A stretch of 64,000 bases of DNA from Limnothrix sp. BL-A-16 (GCA_041937175.2 CP166615.1:1408001-1472000); one strand, 5' to 3'; numbered from the stretch's first letter, positions 1,112-9,246 are shown. The notes: generated by a model not told the origin, from the sequence alone. Made by a program: numbers and translations.

Positions 1112-1120
1112 TGCTATACT
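1112..1120 (+). promoter_or_regulatory. Candidate extended -10 promoter (TGcTATACT) for the riboswitch leader
   Basis: TG-n-TATACT located 6-7 nt before the riboswitch P1 stem. Confidence 0.5.
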
Positions 1121-1126
1121 TCACCG

Positions 1127-1282
1127 AGTCGGTTCTAGCGGGGAGCAGCCGCTAGAGGTAACGGGGAAAGTTCGGTGTGAATCCGGCACTGTCCCGCAGC
1201 TGTGAAGGAGAAGTGTTTCTCCGAGTCAGAATGCCCGCCGATTCAATCCTACAAAGCCCTAAACATCTGCGAGGTACAGATG
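1127..1282 (+). ncRNA. Cobalamin (B12) riboswitch with downstream RBS-sequestering hairpin
   Basis: Conserved blocks GGGGAAAGTTCGGTGTGAATCCGGCACTGTCCCGCAGCTGT and B12-box-like AGTCAGAATGCCCGCC; P1 AGTCGG/CCGATT; hairpin CATCTG-CGAGGTA-CAGATG (1264-1282) holds GAGG and an ATG; lies upstream of metE. Confidence 0.93.
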
Positions 1283-1393
1283 AACTTACAGCATTTTGCT
1301 GACGACCGCCAAAGGCTTGGGTCGTCAAACTTTTACAGTGCAACGCTTCAGCTCAGCACCTTAGCCGTGCCTCCCTGTTCGACTAATTCCTAA
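1280..1393 (+). CDS. Possible 37-aa leader ORF directly under riboswitch control
   Basis: ATG inside the expression-platform hairpin, preceded by GAGG; MNLQHFADDRQRLG...PCSTNS. Confidence 0.3.
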   Translation: MNLQHFADDRQRLGSSNFYSATLQLSTLAVPPCSTNS

Positions 1394-1904
1394 GTCCAGG
1401 CGGGCGCAGACCCCAATTCCCTCCAAGAGCTGACCGCTAGGGCCATCCGGTTTCTACCCAATGGCAAGGGCCAATCACGATGACCGGAGACTGATGATCA
1501 GGCCTCCCGATCGCTGATTGCATTCTGGACTTCCTCTAGATTGTGAGAAACCCGATCGCCCGATCAAAGTCAGCGGGACTTGGTGTTAGCGAGACTAAGA
1601 AGGCTGACAAACTTAACCTTCGTCGCTCTCACCAGTGACAAACTCCAGCACAGGGGCACAACCGCAAACCTTGTGGATTCAGCCCCCCAGCGAGACTCGG
1701 GCACCCTCAAATTAATGCCCATACTCGCTGCATTTTGGCTGGATTAGGTCTGTCTGTCGCCTGGGACTTGGGTTCAACATTCATCCCTTGACATCGCGCG
1801 GCCTTGCCTAGCCGATCGGTGGGTGTTCTGTTCGATCAAGCACCCCTCAACTGCGCTGTCATCATCACTCAAAATTTCGCAAAATTTCAGGAGCCTCGAT
1901 TCCC

Positions 1905-4154
1905 ATGGTTATTCAAACCGCCACCTTGGGCTATGCCCGCATGGGCAAAAATCGTGAAGTCAAAAAGGCCCTAGAGTCTTTTTGGCATGGCAAGTGTGAG
2001 ATCAACGCATTGCGATCGACCGTAGAAGCTGTGGAAACCCATGCTTGGACAGTTCAGTTAAAAGCTGGGGTCGATCGAATTGCCGTCGGAGACCAAACTC
2101 TTTACGACCACGTTCTAGATTGGTCAGTGCGTCTGGGGCTAATTCCCGCTCGGTTTCGGCAGTTCACAGGCATTGATCAGTACTTTGCGATGGCCAGGGG
2201 CAAAGACGGGATTCCTGCACTCGAAATGACGAAATGGTTTGATACCAACTATCACTATCTCGTGCCCGAAATTGAGTCTGATCTTGTTCCCACGGCCAAT
2301 TTCGATGATTTCCTAGCAACGGTCAAGCGAGCACAGCTCATTCTCAGCGATCGGGCAACTCCCGTGATCCTCAGTCCGATTACGCTGCTCACCCTCAGTC
2401 GGCGCTCCAACGATCTCTACTCGGATTTAGATCGGTTGCTGCCTCTTTACCTTGACCTACTGGGGCAGTTGAAATCCCTGGGAATCACCGAGGTGCAATT
2501 CCATGAGCCAACCTTAGTAACCAGTCATGCCGGTGATTTAGAAACTGCAATTAAACATACCTACCATCAACTAGCAACTGCGGGGTTGCCGATTCAACTG
2601 GTCACCTACTTTGATGATTTGGGGGATGCCTATAACTGGGTGATGCAGCTCCCGGTAGCTGGAGTTAGCCTCGATTTCACACGAAGCAACAATCTATCTT
2701 TAGTGAAAACCCATGGCTTTCCTCACGACAAAGTGCTTGGGGCCGGTGTTGTGGACGGGCGGAGCGTTTGGGCCATTGAACCCAAGGGTCTGTTGGAACT
2801 GCTTCAGGAATTGCAGGCAATCACACCAAATTTGCGTGTTCAGCCCTCCGCGTCACTCCAGTTTGTTCCCCATGATGCAACCTGCGAAGCTCAACTCCCG
2901 CAACCTTTGCGCGATGTCCTCAGTTTTGCGGAGCAAAAGTTAACGGAAGTGGTGTTGCTGGCAAGCGGCCTCAACGGACAAGACACGACCAACGAGCAAG
3001 CTGCGATCGAGTTGCGTTGGCAGGCATTCAAGCATTTCAACTTACCTAACCCGGCAGTGCGCGATGTGTTACAAACCCTCAAGGTAGAGGATTTTCAGCG
3101 CTCCCTTCCCTATGAACAACGGCTGAATCAGCAACCCAAACTTCCCCCCCTGCCCACCACCACGATCGGTTCTTTTCCGCAAACCCAAGACATTCGACAA
3201 CTGCGGCTCCGATACAAAAAAGGGGAAATTTCCCAAGCGGACTATCACCAGGCGATCGATACCAAAATTGCAGAGTGCATCAAACTCCAAGAGGACGTTG
3301 GGCTAGATGTGCTAGTGCACGGTGAGTTTGAGCGAACTGACATGGTGGAGTATTTTGGACAGCAACTCCAGGGCTTTGCCTTCACAACGGATGGATGGGT
3401 GCAGAGTTATGGCAGTCGTTGCGTTCGCCCACCCATCATTTATGGTGATGTGTCCCGACTGCAACCCATGACCGTTCGGGAGTTTCAAGTTGCACAATCA
3501 TTGACAGATAAACCGGTGAAGGGAATGCTCACGGGCCCGGTCACCATGATCAATTGGTCATTCCCTCGGGCTGACCTCCCGCGCCGTGAACAGGCCATGC
3601 AGATTGCGCTGGCTTTACGAGATGAGGTTGCCGATTTGGAAGCCGCTGGCGCTGTCATGGTGCAAGTGGATGAACCGGCCCTCCGGGAAGGATTGCCCTT
3701 GAAATCTGCTCGGTGGAATGAGTACCTCAGTTGGGCTGTGGATTCGTTCCGATTAGCCACCGGTGGCGCGAAGACTGAAACCCAAATTCACACGCACATG
3801 TGCTATTCCGAGTTTGGAGACATTATTGAGCACATTGAACGCCTTGATGCGGATGTTCTATCCATTGAAAATAGCCGCAGCAACAACGCAACGCTCTTTG
3901 AAATCACGGATGCTGGATATCAGTATCAAGTTGGGAACGGGGTCTATGATGTCCACAGCCCAAGCGTTCCCAGTGTGGAACAAATTCTTCAGCAGTTGCG
4001 CACGGGTGCTGATCGTTTGCCTGTTCAGCAAACCTGGATTAATCCTGACTGCGGGCTAAAAACTCGCCAGTGGGAAGAAGTGCTTCCTGCGCTCAAAAAT
4101 ATGGTGCTCGCCACGCAAAAGCTACGGGAAGAAATTCATGATTCATCCCACTAG
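1905..4154 (+). CDS. metE: Cobalamin-independent methionine synthase
   Basis: EMTKWFDTNYHY, TTTIGSFPQT, HGEFERTDMVEYF, HTHMCY and NPDCGLKTR motifs; 749 aa. Confidence 0.98.
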   Translation: MVIQTATLGYARMGKNREVKKALESFWHGKCEINALRSTVEAVETHAWTVQLKAGVDRIAVGDQTLYDHVLDWSVRLGLIPARFRQFTGIDQYFAMARGKDGIPALEMTKWFDTNYHYLVPEIESDLVPTANFDDFLATVKRAQLILSDRATPVILSPITLLTLSRRSNDLYSDLDRLLPLYLDLLGQLKSLGITEVQFHEPTLVTSHAGDLETAIKHTYHQLATAGLPIQLVTYFDDLGDAYNWVMQLPVAGVSLDFTRSNNLSLVKTHGFPHDKVLGAGVVDGRSVWAIEPKGLLELLQELQAITPNLRVQPSASLQFVPHDATCEAQLPQPLRDVLSFAEQKLTEVVLLASGLNGQDTTNEQAAIELRWQAFKHFNLPNPAVRDVLQTLKVEDFQRSLPYEQRLNQQPKLPPLPTTTIGSFPQTQDIRQLRLRYKKGEISQADYHQAIDTKIAECIKLQEDVGLDVLVHGEFERTDMVEYFGQQLQGFAFTTDGWVQSYGSRCVRPPIIYGDVSRLQPMTVREFQVAQSLTDKPVKGMLTGPVTMINWSFPRADLPRREQAMQIALALRDEVADLEAAGAVMVQVDEPALREGLPLKSARWNEYLSWAVDSFRLATGGAKTETQIHTHMCYSEFGDIIEHIERLDADVLSIENSRSNNATLFEITDAGYQYQVGNGVYDVHSPSVPSVEQILQQLRTGADRLPVQQTWINPDCGLKTRQWEEVLPALKNMVLATQKLREEIHDSSH

Positions 4155-4572
4155 CCCAAGGTTGTCAAACCTGACTGTTGGCTTACCCAACGTTATTCAG
4201 GATAACTTCCTGTACATCGGCTATGTTGCATGGCAAGGCCACCTCCAATATGGACGAGGGATGGTGGCTTGTACAGTGCAAGAAACGGTGACTAATCGCT
4301 TGGGTGGGATTGAGGATGTAACAGCAAGGTCTGTGCAATATATTCCGTTCGACCTTGCTGCTTTATACCTTGACCTTTGCCTTGTGCCTGTTAGTTCAAT
4401 CGATCGCCTGTTGAGCGTGATCAAAACCTATGCACCCGATCGAGAGATTTTGATTTTGGTCAAGCAAGGTCAAGATGTGGAGATTGACTGGCTGCAAAAC
4501 CTAGCAATTTCACCTTCTGAGTGTTATCGCCAAGTGTGCGATCGCTGGTCAGAGTTTAATCTGGCTTCTTAA
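4138..4572 (+). CDS. Hypothetical protein, paralogue of 6886-7353
   Basis: Overlaps metE stop by 17 nt; shares GY.AW....GRG.V.C, Y.P..E/D and L.ISP...Y..VC....EF motifs with 6886-7353. Confidence 0.75.
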   Translation: MIHPTSPRLSNLTVGLPNVIQDNFLYIGYVAWQGHLQYGRGMVACTVQETVTNRLGGIEDVTARSVQYIPFDLAALYLDLCLVPVSSIDRLLSVIKTYAPDREILILVKQGQDVEIDWLQNLAISPSECYRQVCDRWSEFNLAS

Positions 4573-4672
4573 CTCAACAGAGGCTGGATTAACACCAAGG
4601 ATTGCAGTGTTGATGATTGCTTCGGCGGATCAGCTCGATGCATGAGCTAGTTCATTGTGTTCTCTTTCATTT

Positions 4673-6052
4673 ATGAATAAGCAGTCGATTTTGGCATTGG
4701 CAGACCATCCCACTGTGGCAGTGACAGGGCGAGTGGATCAGTGGCTCCATGATCCTGCGGGGCGGCTGCCGGTGAGCTGTACGGTTCTGGCTGTGCAGGA
4801 TCGAATGGATGGCCCGGATGGCATTGAAGATAGTTGGCATTTCACGAGCCAGGCCCTCCGCTATGGGGCTGGTGTTGCGATCAACTTGTCAGCGCTTCGG
4901 CCTGCGGGTACGGTTTCGCCGAATGTCACAGCCTCTGGCCCCACATCTTTTGCCCGCATTTACAGCGTCTTGAATGAGACGATCCGCCGGGGCGGTCGAT
5001 TTAAAAACGGGGCGGTCAATTTGCATTTGGATAGTCATCACCCTGATGCTCAGGACTTTATTAAGATTCCAATCGATCGCTTGCCTTGGGCTAAACGCAC
5101 GCTAATTGTTCATGATGATTTGCTGCAATTGCCATACCTGAATGACATCATGGAGCAAATGCAATCCGGCAGTTTGTGGCTCTCCAAAGCTCGGACGGAT
5201 GCTGCGGGAAATGTGCTGTATGGCAATGTTTGCAATGAAATTTTTTTGCCGTCACGGGGAACCTGTTTGCTGCAACATGTCAACTTGGGAATGTGTTGCA
5301 TTGAGGATATTCCTGATGCTTTCGAGCATGGCATGAAGATGCTCTGTTCAATTCATCCCATCACTGGTGTGGGTGAGAGTAGCCTTTATCGATCGCCCGA
5401 ACATGATCGACAGGTGGGGTTGGGGGTCATTGGCTTGGCATCGCTTTTGGCGATCGAAAGCGTTACCTATCGCGAGTTGGTGGAAGCTTGGGAATTGCGC
5501 CTGCGGCCGATCGACCACGCAAGAAGTCAAACCAAGGCCGATCGATTAGTGAACAGCCTAATTGAAGGGTTCGATCGCGCGGCGGCTTGGGCCCGAAAAG
5601 AGGGAATGGAGCGCAGTCTAACGATCGCGCCAACGGCTTCCTGTGCTTATCGCTATGTTGATCGCGATGGCTACACAACAACACCGGAAATTAGCCCCCC
5701 GATCGCCTGTGAAGTCGATCGCTACAGTGGTGTTTTTGGGATCCAAACCTATGATCATCATCCCCGAGTAGAAACTGCTTCAGAAGTGGGATATGAGGAC
5801 TATTTCCGGCTGGCCAATTGTTGGCAGCAAAGCATGGAAGCGACGGGACAGGCTCACTCGATATCCTTCAACATTTGGGATACCCAGGTGATTGATCAAG
5901 ATTTCCTAGAAAAATGGATGCGATCGGCACTTTGGACAACCTACTATCGATTGCCAGTCCGTCAACAATCCGCCCTTGATAAAACCATCATTCAACAGAA
6001 ATCGTTAACTTGCGATCTGTCGGCTGATGAATGTGTTGCTTGTGCTGAATAG
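4673..6052 (+). CDS. Minimal ribonucleotide reductase alpha subunit, cyanophage-type (class Ø / Cyano SP clade)
   Basis: TGRV..W..DP..RLPVSCTV N-terminus, finger loop NVCNE, GTCLLQHVNL, TIAPTASC, class I-type YY dyad (WTTYYRL), C-terminal CVAC; only ~459 aa with no ATP cone. Confidence 0.9.
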   Translation: MNKQSILALADHPTVAVTGRVDQWLHDPAGRLPVSCTVLAVQDRMDGPDGIEDSWHFTSQALRYGAGVAINLSALRPAGTVSPNVTASGPTSFARIYSVLNETIRRGGRFKNGAVNLHLDSHHPDAQDFIKIPIDRLPWAKRTLIVHDDLLQLPYLNDIMEQMQSGSLWLSKARTDAAGNVLYGNVCNEIFLPSRGTCLLQHVNLGMCCIEDIPDAFEHGMKMLCSIHPITGVGESSLYRSPEHDRQVGLGVIGLASLLAIESVTYRELVEAWELRLRPIDHARSQTKADRLVNSLIEGFDRAAAWARKEGMERSLTIAPTASCAYRYVDRDGYTTTPEISPPIACEVDRYSGVFGIQTYDHHPRVETASEVGYEDYFRLANCWQQSMEATGQAHSISFNIWDTQVIDQDFLEKWMRSALWTTYYRLPVRQQSALDKTIIQQKSLTCDLSADECVACAE

Positions 6053-6064
6053 GAAGCATTTCTG

Positions 6065-6784
6065 ATGGACTTTTACACTGAACAATTGGCTCGCAAGCGC
6101 TCCTGGACACCCACTTGTGGCGAAAGGATGAACACAATGCCGGGCGCGGATCAAGTTTTGGGGCGGGCCCTGGCGCTGCGTGTTCTTGAATTAGAAGTGG
6201 CGGAATGGCTAGACGACGCTTTGGGCAAAACGACACTTCCAGCAACAGCAGTTGAATGTCTGCGCTCTAATATTCTTGATGAAGAACGGCACGACAAAGT
6301 GTTAGGAATGGCCGCTCAAATCTATCAACTGACGACCGATAGGGACGAAGCAGAAGCCAAACAAATTCATCAGCAATGGATTCATCATCCTGACCATCCA
6401 TTGGTCAAGGCCTTCGTGTTGGAAAATTCCGTCTTCTTTGTGATTCTGCCCTTGCTGCGGATGTTTGGTGGCGTGGGTTTGGGAATCATCTCAGGCGATA
6501 TTTCCGGTGATGAATCTGTCCATGCGGCCGTCCATCGCCAAGCAGCGCATGATCTAGGATTGACCTACAGCAGTTCCTTAGATCGTCTTAGAAGAGATAC
6601 CGTTGGTTGGCTGGTGGATGGCTTGCGAATCCCGGAAGCGGGACGTTCTGGGAAACCTCAACGTTGGTTGGATGCGTCAGATAGTTTGCTCTATCAAGGG
6701 GCTTCTGATTTGGTGGAAACCCGTCGCGCAATTCAGCCTGCATTTTTTGAAATTGCTAACGATGCCCTACCGAGCTATCGGTAA
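6065..6784 (+). CDS. Ferritin-like small (beta/R2-like) subunit partnering the RNR alpha
   Basis: 12 nt after alpha; dimetal carboxylate pattern LELEV...DEERH...VLENSVFF...DESVH; C-terminal LPSY. Confidence 0.85.
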   Translation: MDFYTEQLARKRSWTPTCGERMNTMPGADQVLGRALALRVLELEVAEWLDDALGKTTLPATAVECLRSNILDEERHDKVLGMAAQIYQLTTDRDEAEAKQIHQQWIHHPDHPLVKAFVLENSVFFVILPLLRMFGGVGLGIISGDISGDESVHAAVHRQAAHDLGLTYSSSLDRLRRDTVGWLVDGLRIPEAGRSGKPQRWLDASDSLLYQGASDLVETRRAIQPAFFEIANDALPSYR

Positions 6785-6885
6785 CTGGTCAGATAATGGC
6801 TTGAGTTCTATCACTGACAATCATAATTTTCAGCATTTTCGACCATGGGTTTTGATCTGAAGTTGTGACGAGTTGGAGTTTTTGG

Positions 6886-7353
6886 ATGGCGACATCTTCT
6901 TCTGACTGGCAGGAGTCCTTTGTTGCCACAAATTTAATTGCTCTGGGATATAACGCTTGGAGTAATTATTTGGCGGGAGGACGAGGTGCAGTGATTTGTA
7001 GCTTGAATTTACCGCAGCTCAACATCACAGGAGAAACATTTCGTACCCATTATGTTGTGAGATCACGACTCGCTGCATTTTTAAATGCCTGGCTAGCCTT
7101 TCCTGATACGGTGATTCTGAATCATCACCATATGAATGGTCATATCTTACAAGCCGTTGACAGCTACAATCCCGAAACCGATCTGGTTTTGTTGCTGGAA
7201 TCTGGCGCGCAAGCCGCTTTTTTATATTTACGCGCTTTGCCCATTTCGCCTCCTAAAAGTTATCAGATCGTTTGTCAAATTCAAGATGAATTTCGTCTAG
7301 AACAACCGAACGCTGCTGAGTTGGGGCAATCTGGAATTGGTCTGAATTTTTAG
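6886..7353 (+). CDS. Hypothetical protein, paralogue of 4138-4572
   Basis: GGAG RBS before ATG 6886; motifs shared with 4138-4572. Confidence 0.75.
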   Translation: MATSSSDWQESFVATNLIALGYNAWSNYLAGGRGAVICSLNLPQLNITGETFRTHYVVRSRLAAFLNAWLAFPDTVILNHHHMNGHILQAVDSYNPETDLVLLLESGAQAAFLYLRALPISPPKSYQIVCQIQDEFRLEQPNAAELGQSGIGLNF

Positions 7354-7449
7354 TGAAATAGGCTGCGGCCGGTCGGTTTCTGGAGCGATCGCCCTATTCG
7401 ATCGCCCCAACTGCGATATTCTGGTCTGTGCATTGCTCCTGGCTGTTTT

Positions 7450-9246
7450 ATGCGTCTGTCCCAAGCCCTGTTCGTCACCCTTCGTGAAGACCCCGCCGAA
7501 GCCGTTGTCACCAGCCACAAGCTGTTGCTACGCGCGGGCTACATCCGCCAAATCGGGAGCGGTATCTATGCCTATTTGCCCCTGATGTGGCGGGTGTTGC
7601 AGAAGGTGTCGCAAATCGTGCGACAGGAAATGGACGCGACGGGCGCGCAGGAATGCCTGCTGCCGCAATTGCAACCGGCGGAACTGTGGCGCGAGTCGGG
7701 CCGTTGGGATGTGTATAAAGCAGAAGGAATCGCCTTCACCCTGAGCGATCGCGCCGATCGGGAGCTGATGCTCGGGCCCACCCACGAGGAAGTGATCACC
7801 ACCGTGGCCAAGGAATTAATCCGTTCCTATCGCCAACTGCCGGTGAATTTGTATCAAATTCAAACCAAATTCCGCGATGAAATTCGCCCGCGCTTTGGCC
7901 TGCTGCGGGGTCGCGAATTCATCATGAAGGATGCCTATTCCTTCCACACCTCGCCCGAAAGCCTGAAGGAAACCTACGACGCGATGGATCAGGCCTATCG
8001 GAATATGCTGCGCCGCTGTGGCCTGAAATTCCGGCCAGTGCAGGCGGATTCCGGGGCGATCGGGGGCAGTGCGTCCCAGGAATTTATGATCCTGGCGGAA
8101 ACGGGCGAAGACGAAATTTTGTTCACCGAGGACGAGCAATACGCCGCCAACGTGGAAAAAGCCGTGTCGCTGCCGGTGGATGCGGTTCCCTCGCCCTTTA
8201 CGAGTTTTGAAACCCTGGAAACGCCGGACACCAACACGATCGCCCGGTTGTGCGAGGTGCTGAAGTGCGACCCAACCCAGGTGGTGAAGAACGTGCTCTA
8301 CGAAGCCTTGCTGGATAACGGCAAGCGGGTGCTGGTGTTGATTAGCATTCGGGGCGATCGGGATGTGAACGAGGTGAAGTTGTTCAACGCGATTACCCAA
8401 CGGGCCCCGAACTACGGCGGCTCGAAGGTGTTGGCCCTGAAAGTACCCGACGCGGCGGCCCAAGCGGCTTGGACGGCCAAACCCTTGCCCCTGGGTTATA
8501 TTGCACCGGACTTGAGCGACGACCACATCGCAACGGCCAAGGACACGGCTCCCCAATTCCTGCGGCTGGTGGATCCGAGTGCCAGCCAGCTCCAGAACTT
8601 CGTGACCGGTGCGAACCAAGCGGGCTATCACGTCGTGGGTGCAAACTGGGGAACTCAATACCAACTACCGGAAGTGGTGGAACTGGATGTGGCCCGGCCG
8701 GGCGATCGCGCGGTGCATGACCCCTCGCAAACCCTGCAATCGGCGCGGGGCATCGAAGCCGGTCACATTTTCCAATTGGGGCTGAAATATTCCCAGGCCA
8801 TGAGCGCAGCTTTCACGACGGAATCCGGCGAAAGCCAGCCCTTTTGGATGGGCTGCTATGGCGTGGGGGTGTCGCGGATTGCCCAAGCGGCGGTGGAACA
8901 GTCCCACGACAAAAACGGCATCATTTGGCCCGTAGCGATCGCCCCGTACCAGGCGATCGTGACCGTGCCGAACATTGCCGACGAGAACCAAATGGCGATC
9001 GCCCAGCAGCTCTACACCGACCTAAACGCGGCGGGCATCGAAACAATCCTGGACGATCGCGAAGAGCGGGCCGGCGTGAAGTTCAAGGATGCGGATTTGA
9101 TCGGGATTCCGTTCCGGGTGGTGACGGGCCGGGCGATCGCCCAAGGCAAGGTGGAACTCGTAACCCGCGCCACGGGAACGGCGGAAGAAGTGGCGATCGC
9201 TGAGTTGGTCAGCACGCTGCAAACCAAGATTGCCGAAGCCCTGTGA
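7450..9246 (+). CDS. proS: Proline--tRNA ligase
   Basis: MRLSQ...[45 protein letters not shown], anticodon-binding domain. Confidence 0.98.

Follow-up and report, generated by a model that had tools for sequence, protein, structure and literature searches.

A cobalamin riboswitch, metE and a class Ø ribonucleotide reductase in Limnothrix sp. BL-A-16: a probable B12-starvation operon

The chromosome of the freshwater cyanobacterium Limnothrix sp. BL-A-16 contains, at positions 1,112 to 7,353 of the stretch analyzed here (64,000 nucleotides [nt] of GCA_041937175.2 CP166615.1:1408001-1472000, hereafter the window), a gene cluster in which a cobalamin (B12) riboswitch stands ahead of metE and of the α and β genes of a class Ø ribonucleotide reductase (RNR). 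An earlier note on this DNA, made from the sequence alone, had interpreted the cluster as one operon supplying B12-free replacements for both methionine synthase and RNR. The observations outlined below support that interpretation: the riboswitch, metE and a class Ø RNR are together in the window, and the B12-dependent counterparts MetH and NrdJ are encoded elsewhere in the genome. The features on which the argument depends are as follows, with positions counted from the first letter of the window.

1113-1256, plus strand: cobalamin riboswitch aptamer (RF00174; 61.5 bits, E = 8.7e-13, model positions 1-189)
1115-1120, plus strand: -10-like hexamer TATACT, putative promoter of the riboswitch transcript, read from the sequence
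1257-1904, plus strand: long leader between aptamer and metE, with metatranscriptome contigs over 1180-1575 and 1637-2302
1264-1282, plus strand: expression-platform hairpin (P13-like), CATCTG-CGAGGTA-CAGATG
1280-1393, plus strand: leader open reading frame (ORF; an upstream ORF) of 37 codons, read from the sequence, with a putative function
1905-4154, plus strand: metE (PF01717, 1.2e-150; PF08267, 1.5e-102)
4138-4572, plus strand: orfX1 (equivalent to Xa, see below), overlapping the metE stop by 17 nt
4573-4672, plus strand: Xa-α intergenic deletion scar, from blastn against Limnothrix redekei (L005) and alignment of the junction
4673-6052, plus strand: RNR α, ATG start, 459 amino acids (aa)
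6065-6784, plus strand: RNR β, ferritin-like, 239 aa
6865-7353, plus strand: orfX2 (equivalent to Xb), GTG start, with a possible ATG start at 6886
7385-7392, no strand assigned: right end of the islet at a HIP1 site, GCGATCGC, from blastn against the congeneric genome G402

The gene set and its order, all on the plus strand, are as first described, as are the gaps of about 100 nt or less after metE, which measure -17, 100, 12 and 80 nt. For orfX2, the Protein Atlas record begins at residue 8.

The α protein is of class Ø and not an ordinary NrdJ, and its N terminus carries the motif by which it had originally been recognized (TGRVDQWLHDPAGRLPVSCT). When the PDB was searched with phmmer, α of the phage S-CBP4 (7urg_A) was matched at E = 2e-128. 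Next came 6dqw (2e-10), then class II chains (2e-8), and the matches to class I and II chains overall lay between 1e-10 and 1e-7. The best NCBIfam match, TIGR02504 (NrdJ_Z), scored 69.1 bits, far under the equivalog cut-off of 399.95, and we rejected the assignment of α as an ordinary class II NrdJ on this score; the genome's true NrdJ, of the TIGR02505 type, lies elsewhere. The protein is minimal, with no ATP-cone and with the PF02867 barrel as its sole Pfam match. Among 20 class Ø α sequences, C36, C187, E189, C198, Y424, Y425 and C457 are invariant, and N185 is kept in at least 90%. Based in part on PMC9531940, we assign C187 as the thiyl-radical cysteine with E189, C36 and C198 as the active-site pair, Y424 and Y425 as the YY dyad, and C457 as the C-terminal cysteine; the tail reads ECVACAE, in which CVAC is of the CXXC type.

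The β gene begins 12 nt after α, and the same α-β arrangement occurs at 26 of the 32 genome-contig loci scanned, no β having been found at the other 6, where the α match extends as far as the sequence retrieved. The protein matches phrog_6799 over its full length (E = 2.8e-70) and has no match among Pfam families or PDB sequences. In an alignment of 15 β sequences, the metal ligands E, ExxH, E and ExxH are invariant, a Leu stands four residues past the first His, and the penultimate Tyr is conserved. The passages drawn on from Burnim et al. (PMC9531940) describe these traits for class Ø β: the metal motifs, a redox-inert Leu or Phe at the radical-Tyr site, and a Tyr near the C terminus. Measured against the 95%-identical copy of L. 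redekei, the ratio of nonsynonymous to synonymous substitution rates (dN/dS) is 0.10 for α and 0.03 for β, next to 0.06 for proS; thus, both genes are maintained by selection, which is strong and purifying. We predict that the enzyme is B12-independent and active in the cell. Two unusual relatives of the pair came to light in the survey. On a marine contig binned as a gammaproteobacterial metagenome-assembled genome (MAG) and probably of phage origin (L025:3713-4651), a group I intron (RF00028, 4067-4345, 86.5 bits) splits the class Ø β gene. On a 3.9-kb contig of a Chloroflexota MAG (L007), which may be a mis-binned cyanobacterial fragment, β is 75% identical to that of the window and α is 54% identical, the latter being 542 aa long with an insertion.

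What else does this genome offer for making deoxynucleotides and methionine? The assembly (4.56 Mb, 2 contigs, 100% complete) encodes metH, and it encodes an RTPR-type NrdJ (TIGR02505), as do all 8 of the 8 genomes of the order that we searched, this one included. Its nrdJ is an uninterrupted 1504-aa frame containing an intein with a LAGLIDADG domain, and it lies ~37 kb upstream of the window (L062:2842-7356); in the congener G401 the NrdJ frame is intein-free and 813 aa long, and split matches occur in other relatives too. A search with PF02867 misses NrdJ of this type, being negative also in the Synechococcus elongatus control and in 6 of the 8 genomes of the order, and the candidate view that class Ø is the sole RNR of the genome was ruled out once TIGR02505 had revealed NrdJ. 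No class I β (PF00268), no NrdD (NRDD) and no PF02867 or TIGR02504 protein besides the α of the window was found in the genome. Thus, the search for nrdJ, metH and nrdAB that had been suggested as a check returned the first two and no class I RNR, and class Ø is not the only RNR that the genome encodes. MetH and NrdJ are named as the cyanobacterial B12 enzymes in the part of Harrison et al. consulted here (PMC6370689). Because both are encoded elsewhere and class I and class III RNRs are lacking, the B12-free counterpart of each is to be found in the cluster. NrdJ is likewise encoded in 5 of 5 cyanobacterial genomes with class Ø, a pattern that fits class Ø as a second, B12-free RNR rather than a replacement.

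The B12 economy of the organism is consistent with this picture. CbiC has three matches in the genome, of which two are close to full length, and CobS is present as well, so that the organism probably makes its own cobamide. It has three cobalamin riboswitches overall, and the two outside the window, at C1:2667797-2667939 on the minus strand (L111) and C1:3541698-3541838 on the plus strand (L112), precede, respectively, cbiM-cbiN-cbiQ and a DUF1636 gene with HupE/UreJ, that is, genes of cobalt uptake. The B12 regulon therefore comprises cobalt uptake and the metE/RNR cluster. DUF1636 and CobW also occur within the riboswitch/orfX cassettes of other cyanobacteria (L076, L068, L105).

The riboswitch itself is well supported: RF00174 is the single Rfam family across the whole window, and the covariance score exceeds the gathering score of 31.5 bits with a match to the full-length model, which bears out the call of a cobalamin riboswitch within 1100-1300. 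About 130 nt of the aptamer region are nearly identical in L. redekei and Desertifilum. The promoter that had been placed ahead of it fared less well, in that a -10-like TATACT is present and aligns with TATAAT in Desertifilum, whereas we recognized no -35 element for it, and a consensus promoter scan did not report that hexamer and found nothing upstream of the riboswitch. The aptamer lies ~650 nt upstream of the metE ATG, a point absent from the earlier note. Immediately behind it, the hairpin at 1264-1282 presents a GAGG Shine-Dalgarno sequence in its loop and the ATG at 1280-1282 in its 3' arm. The sequence TCT(G/A)CGAGG with a complementary arm follows 21 of 21 riboswitches inspected (19 of cassettes plus the two others of this genome), and the closing base pair of the stem changes from G-C to A-T on both sides at two loci, L105 and L107. 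The hairpin is present in the minimum-free-energy fold; the fold of 1105-1400 as a whole is no better than shuffles (z = -0.87), and no canonical terminator was found. In cobalamin riboswitches, a loop pairs with aptamer loop L5 when ligand is bound, and the ribosome-binding site is thereby hidden; by analogy, we predict that the hairpin at 1264-1282 enters a kissing loop with L5 (CCCGCA). A GCCCGC/GCGAGG pairing proposed by RNAalifold from 15 leaders was set aside, as it shows no covariation.

The platform hairpin appears to gate the leader ORF, not metE directly. The ATG opens a frame of 37 codons that contains a GC hairpin at 1301-1326 (GACGACC/GGTCGTC); its counterpart in L. redekei is also 37 codons long, that in Desertifilum 34 codons with a peptide of unrelated sequence, and the leaders of other cassettes have short ORFs behind this hairpin too. 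The distance from aptamer to metE spans 203 to 1887 nt in 9 further cassettes of cyanobacteria; thus, a long leader is normal for the cassette. Many of the 21 leaders also share a CAGC(A/T)TTTT run 10 to 20 nt past the gated start codon. Its nucleotides are conserved and its reading frame is not, which points to an additional RNA element in the expression platform.

The genes on either side of α-β belong to a larger and more widespread unit. orfX1 and orfX2 are paralogues (27% identity, E = 4e-14) that match no family in Pfam, NCBIfam or PHROG. A word-based search gave just 2 homologues, and a profile was used instead; it recovers 189 cluster representatives at E <= 1e-3, mostly of ~145-155 aa, the named ones being hypothetical proteins of Leptolyngbya, Pleurocapsa, Hydrococcus and others. 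Of 401 cyanobacterial genomes sampled, 47 match the profile, in many cases with a tandem pair, and just 1 has class Ø α. At 14 orfX loci from other cyanobacteria, each examined over 10 kb, the cassette is without exception preceded on its own strand by a cobalamin riboswitch (16 riboswitch matches), metE is directly upstream on the same strand in 9, and no RNR is present in any. Because all 14 loci are headed by a riboswitch while class Ø α is so rare, Xa and Xb are members of the riboswitch regulon. orfX1 shares 33-42% identity with the first copy of other cassettes, and orfX2 shares 55-65% with the second copy of 12 others, so that they are, respectively, the Xa and Xb of a conserved B12-regulated cassette that is not specific to RNR. 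They are genes of the MetE cassette and not partners of the RNR. A role as NrdI-like RNR maturation factors was dropped, the family being common in genomes without class Ø. Against L. redekei, dN/dS is 0.08 for metE, 0.35 for orfX1 and 0.06 for orfX2.

The typical order of the cassette is riboswitch-metE-Xa-Xb, and there are variations on it. At L097 the order is riboswitch-metE-Xa-Xb followed by a small ORF (sORF), a methyltransferase and a flavin adenine dinucleotide (FAD) monooxygenase (FMO); at L103-L107 the riboswitch precedes Xa, Xb and/or the methyltransferase without metE, of which L107 keeps a 52-aa remnant. The sORF (~94 aa), a 334-aa S-adenosylmethionine (SAM) methyltransferase and the UbiH-like FMO recur behind cobalamin riboswitches of several cyanobacteria, whether or not metE is present (L005:7357-9942; L031:2784-5502; L097:6873-9306; L103:2481-3804; L104:6297-7187; L107:7362-8240). 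Both enzymes are of types that modify quinones. The methyltransferase is 78-84% identical across families, with UbiE/COQ5-like Pfam matches, and the Limnothrix genome holds elsewhere a second copy, 79% identical, of the cassette methyltransferase. The cassette has been deprived of metE in two independent lineages (L031:2244-2330; L107:5209-5364), which retain remnants of 25-52 aa together with the riboswitch and downstream genes, and the metE of G029 (L096:3764-7184) is interrupted by a ~1.2-kb insertion between residues 379 and 382, which may be an intron, an intein or an IS element. In another family (G334; L100:7217-9013), proS adjoins metE-Xa-Xb convergently, which could be chance or old synteny.

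As to what Xa might be, the AlphaFold2 model of orfX1 (mean predicted local distance difference test score, 68.6) has as its sole clear fold match CcmS (Slr1911; PDB 8zlh, 9iur), with a Foldseek E value of 4.4e-5 and a template-modeling score of 0.51-0.56. For this moderate-confidence model, VIA gives Z = 7.2 and a root-mean-square deviation of 4.6 Å over 108 residues. Slr1911 is also the top match of the orfX profile among PDB sequences, at an E value of 1.5, which is not significant. A Protein Atlas search with orfX2 gave no usable match. CcmS is reported to be a β-carboxysome assembly chaperone (PMC11635287). orfX1 resembles it in being a small cyanobacterial protein, with a modeled fold that may be shared, and differs in lacking significant sequence similarity and in residing in a B12/metE cassette instead of with carboxysome genes.

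How did an RNR come to lie in such a cassette? Apart from the window, we compared 34 class Ø loci, of which species-representative genomes supplied 32 and metagenomes 2 (47% identity); closer α relatives, 77-80% identical, also exist (P0002-P0004). Two of the 34 loci have a cobalamin riboswitch. In L. redekei LRLZ20PSL1, whose α is 95% identical, the order is CHAT-riboswitch-metE-Xa-sORF-methyltransferase-FMO-α-β-Xb-proS, with α 58 nt behind FMO. In the MAG of Desertifilum sp. SIO1I2 (α 78-85% identical), one contig carries the riboswitch, a 145-aa membrane ORF, a metE remnant and Xa-sORF-methyltransferase-FMO-α, with overlaps of 4 nt both between methyltransferase and FMO and between FMO and α; a second contig carries α-β-Xb, with Xb frame-shifted in the MAG. 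The remnant there is a frame-shifted internal deletion that joins the first ~22 codons of metE to its last few, and the riboswitch persists though metE is deleted. In all three organisms, α-β is flanked on both sides by cassette genes and lies upstream of Xb. Blastn homology of the window to L. redekei ends at 4563 and returns at 4655, with short similar sequences at both junctions, which fits a derived arrangement in which a 2.6-kb deletion of sORF, methyltransferase and FMO put α 100 nt behind Xa. The survey of cyanobacterial synteny thus places α 58 nt behind, or overlapping, the upstream cassette gene in the relatives, and the interval 4573-4672, where a B12-insensitive promoter of the RNR's own had been considered, is a deletion scar and not a conserved promoter region.

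The cluster lies between a CHAT-domain gene (4-1032) and proS (7450-9246), and phage structural, replication or integrase genes do not adjoin it, the neighbors being the CHAT gene, proS and a VWA/SBP gene; here the first description stands. The G+C content is 0.44-0.54 from the riboswitch to orfX2 against ~0.60 in the CHAT gene and proS. Within the order, α is present in 2 of the 8 genomes, this one and one congener; congeneric G402, whose proS is 97% identical, has neither α nor metE, and in blastn against it only 7385-9243 of the window aligns, starting at the HIP1 site. The left boundary of the islet is not definable from G402, where the proS neighborhood is rearranged. Based on the low G+C content and the absence from the congener, the whole cassette looks like an acquired islet.

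A quick maximum-likelihood tree of 38 class Ø α sequences, rooted at the midpoint, taken from a quick search and holding class Ø sequences only, falls into two clades with a Shimodaira-Hasegawa-like approximate likelihood ratio test (SH-aLRT) support of 100% on both sides. One contains the window, L. redekei, three metagenome relatives, Allocoleopsis, Chroococcidiopsis, Gloeobacterales MAGs and long metagenome contigs; the other contains all 5 phages included and MAG contigs of many phyla. The label "phage-type" is therefore fair in a broad sense, whereas the placement of α within the clade of T7-like cyanopodophages gives way to a sister clade. The α genes of Allocoleopsis and Chroococcidiopsis (L008, L033) sit among phage-like genes, a thymidylate-synthase-like gene with HNH/terminase in one and DNA polymerase A, AAA_25 and Dam in the other, and that of Gloeobacterales has cellular neighbors. 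Domestication of a class Ø RNR by the host is plausible, although transfer could have run in either direction. The contigs of the phage clade (L012, L017, L020, L022, L029, L030, L036) often carry Glutamine-II riboswitches and abiF RNAs, a content that fits cyanophage or phage origin of these contigs, which are binned into MAGs of many phyla.

In total, the observations outlined above are best accommodated, in our estimation with a probability of roughly 70%, by a B12/cobalt-starvation operon in which a class Ø RNR, with relatives in phages and prophage-like regions, backs up NrdJ. We posit that an α-β pair became embedded upstream of Xb in the widespread cassette in the Limnothrix/Desertifilum lineage. 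B12 elements reportedly repress B12-independent isozymes as a general rule (Rodionov/Vitreschak 2003). In this model, when cobamide is plentiful, the aptamer would be bound by the cell's own cobamide, the GAGG/AUG hairpin would be locked, probably through loop-loop contact with the aptamer, the leader ORF would go untranslated, and the downstream message would not be made or not be kept; the replete cell would then use MetH and NrdJ. A shortage of cobamide or cobalt would turn the operon on, so that MetE would stand in for MetH and the O2- and metal-dependent class Ø RNR for NrdJ. The coupling of the leader ORF to the distal genes, possibly by attenuation at a structure within the ORF or by decay of the untranslated leader, is likely the weakest link of the model.

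We infer that the RNR genes are on the riboswitch transcript from the short gaps, the embedding in the cassette with Xb downstream of the RNR, the overlaps in Desertifilum, and metatranscriptome contigs that bridge gene junctions, and we predict that B12 represses them. Contigs from 4 studies cover the leader, metE, α and β, and they span metE/Xa (3720-4228, 3267-4180), Xa/α (4382-4929) and α/β (5719-6645); none covers orfX2 (6859-7292), which is no evidence of absence. Scanning the cluster gave 2 promoter-like matches against a shuffle mean of 6.0 and 9 terminator-like matches against 6.9, and no convincing internal promoter or terminator.

Several considerations weigh on the other side. The aptamer is ~650 nt from metE and 3.4 kb from α, and the platform appears to gate a 37-codon ORF only. 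The Xa-α gap contains a weak sigma70-like match (TTAACA-17-GATGAT, 4589-4617), not above shuffles. Assembled contigs neither show a single transcript nor exclude DNA carry-over. The riboswitch link is confined to one small lineage, with 2 of the 34 other class Ø loci, and three other cyanobacterial class Ø loci are without a riboswitch within 10 kb. Cyanobacteria are not known to have Rho, and no class Ø RNR is known to have been characterized biochemically or enzymologically. The radical-generating mechanism of class Ø is, in the relevant part of PMC9531940, not classifiable without biochemical data.

The main alternative, and one that we regard as unlikely, is that the riboswitch controls the leader ORF and metE, perhaps with Xa, and that the RNR pair and Xb are expressed from an internal promoter, either constitutively or under different control (by the cell cycle, NrdR or oxidative stress, for example), the adjacency being only the landing site of a mobile α-β pair. 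The remote aptamer, the riboswitch-less cyanobacterial loci, and the weak promoter match, together with a weak hairpin at 4632-4648 that is likewise not above shuffle expectation, are what one would cite for it, and the genome encodes NrdR. A search for NrdR boxes with a consensus pattern (<=3 mismatches) found none in the window; the region upstream of nrdJ likewise gave none, a failed positive control that makes the result uninformative. Yet the gap that would hold this promoter is a recent deletion scar absent from the relatives, in which α either overlaps FMO by 4 nt or follows it by 58 nt. Moreover, Xb, downstream of α-β, is a riboswitch-cassette gene in 12 of 12 other Xb-type loci, promoter-like matches are fewer than in shuffles, and a contig bridges Xa and α.

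Could α-β instead be a decaying or non-RNR prophage relic with no role in supplying deoxynucleotides? The phage-like surroundings of the Allocoleopsis and Chroococcidiopsis relatives, the lowered G+C content of the cluster and its absence from a congener would suit such an origin, but we consider this very improbable, given dN/dS values as low as that of proS, catalytic residues and metal ligands that are all intact, intact frames in two Limnothrix genomes and the Desertifilum MAG, and coverage of both genes by metatranscriptome contigs. Least tenable of all is the proposal that α is in practice cobalamin-dependent and class II-like, with a riboswitch unrelated to isozyme replacement: class Ø α sequences are nearer to class II than to class I (PMC9531940, in the part cited) and NrdJ_Z is the best NCBIfam match, far under its cut-off, but a ferritin-like β with a complete E/ExxH/E/ExxH site follows α, α carries the YY dyad for long-range radical transfer, and a B12-dependent enzyme behind a B12-OFF switch beside metE makes no regulatory sense.

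Returning to the starvation operon, we can also ask whether it does more than replace two enzymes. Tentatively, and with clear doubt, we speculate that Xa/Xb, the sORF, a membrane-anchored SAM methyltransferase and the UbiH-like monooxygenase form a hitherto undescribed B12-starvation module beyond metE, with Xa and Xb as possible chaperones, and that capture of the class Ø RNR completed it. Xa and Xb may be assembly or stabilizing chaperones for B12-free enzymes, perhaps including the metal-labile class Ø β, a protein that has so far defied biochemical work in vitro.

Parts of this arrangement have precedents. The class Ia nrdABS operon of Streptomyces is under a B12 riboswitch (Borovok et al. 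2006, as cited in the section of PMC12528414 used here). The Limnothrix cluster resembles it in having a cobalamin riboswitch before an O2-dependent, B12-independent RNR, with NrdJ also in the genome and the same logic of isozyme replacement. It differs in that the RNR is class Ø and not Ia, shares its putative operon with metE and at least 4 other cassette genes, lies with α 3.4 kb downstream of the riboswitch in a cyanobacterial host, and is under regulation that we predict from the sequence. In Synechococcus sp. PCC 73109, too, a cobalamin riboswitch precedes metE, and its function was reportedly validated in PCC 7002 (Perez et al. 2016, as cited in PMC9964548); the citing review, in its passage on that system, reports no RNR there. 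The closest counterpart of the enzyme itself is the class Ø RNR of S-CBP4 (7URG; Burnim et al. 2022, PMC9531940, in part), with ~49% α identity by tblastn along with the phmmer match given above. As far as the sections cited describe them, S-CBP4 and the "Cyano SP" clade (Harrison et al. 2019, PMC6370689) share with it a minimal, ATP-cone-free α with a YY dyad and, directly downstream, a 240-aa ferritin-like β in which Leu occupies the radical site and the penultimate residue is Tyr. Unlike the S-CBP4 enzyme, the Limnothrix RNR is chromosomal and belongs to a probable cellular operon free of phage genes; its α carries a C-terminal tail of the CXXC type and falls in a clade apart from all 5 phage sequences of the quick tree (100% SH-aLRT).

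Class Ø RNRs are described in phages and some bacteria (PMC9531940 and PMC6370689, in the parts cited), and a full-text literature search, supplements excluded, returned no paper that ties a class Ø or "Cyano SP" RNR to a riboswitch and none on a Limnothrix RNR. It is already known that a B12 riboswitch represses a B12-independent RNR in other bacteria and that cyanobacteria have metE riboswitches; what is new is class Ø in that role, embedded in a conserved, largely unannotated B12-regulated cassette.

A class Ø pair in a putative B12-OFF operon, in a genome that also encodes NrdJ, is independent genomic evidence for cobalamin-free function of this enzyme in cells, beyond phage infection, and a culturable cyanobacterium with both NrdJ and class Ø is a genetic system in which the function of class Ø can be tested. 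More broadly, the nutrient-stress regulon of a host can take in an RNR from a clade otherwise found mostly in phages. The locus also exposes conserved, unannotated B12-regulated genes of cyanobacteria, namely, Xa, Xb, the sORF, the methyltransferase and the monooxygenase. If these do form a starvation module with the class Ø RNR, the cell could run both of its essential B12-dependent reactions without B12.

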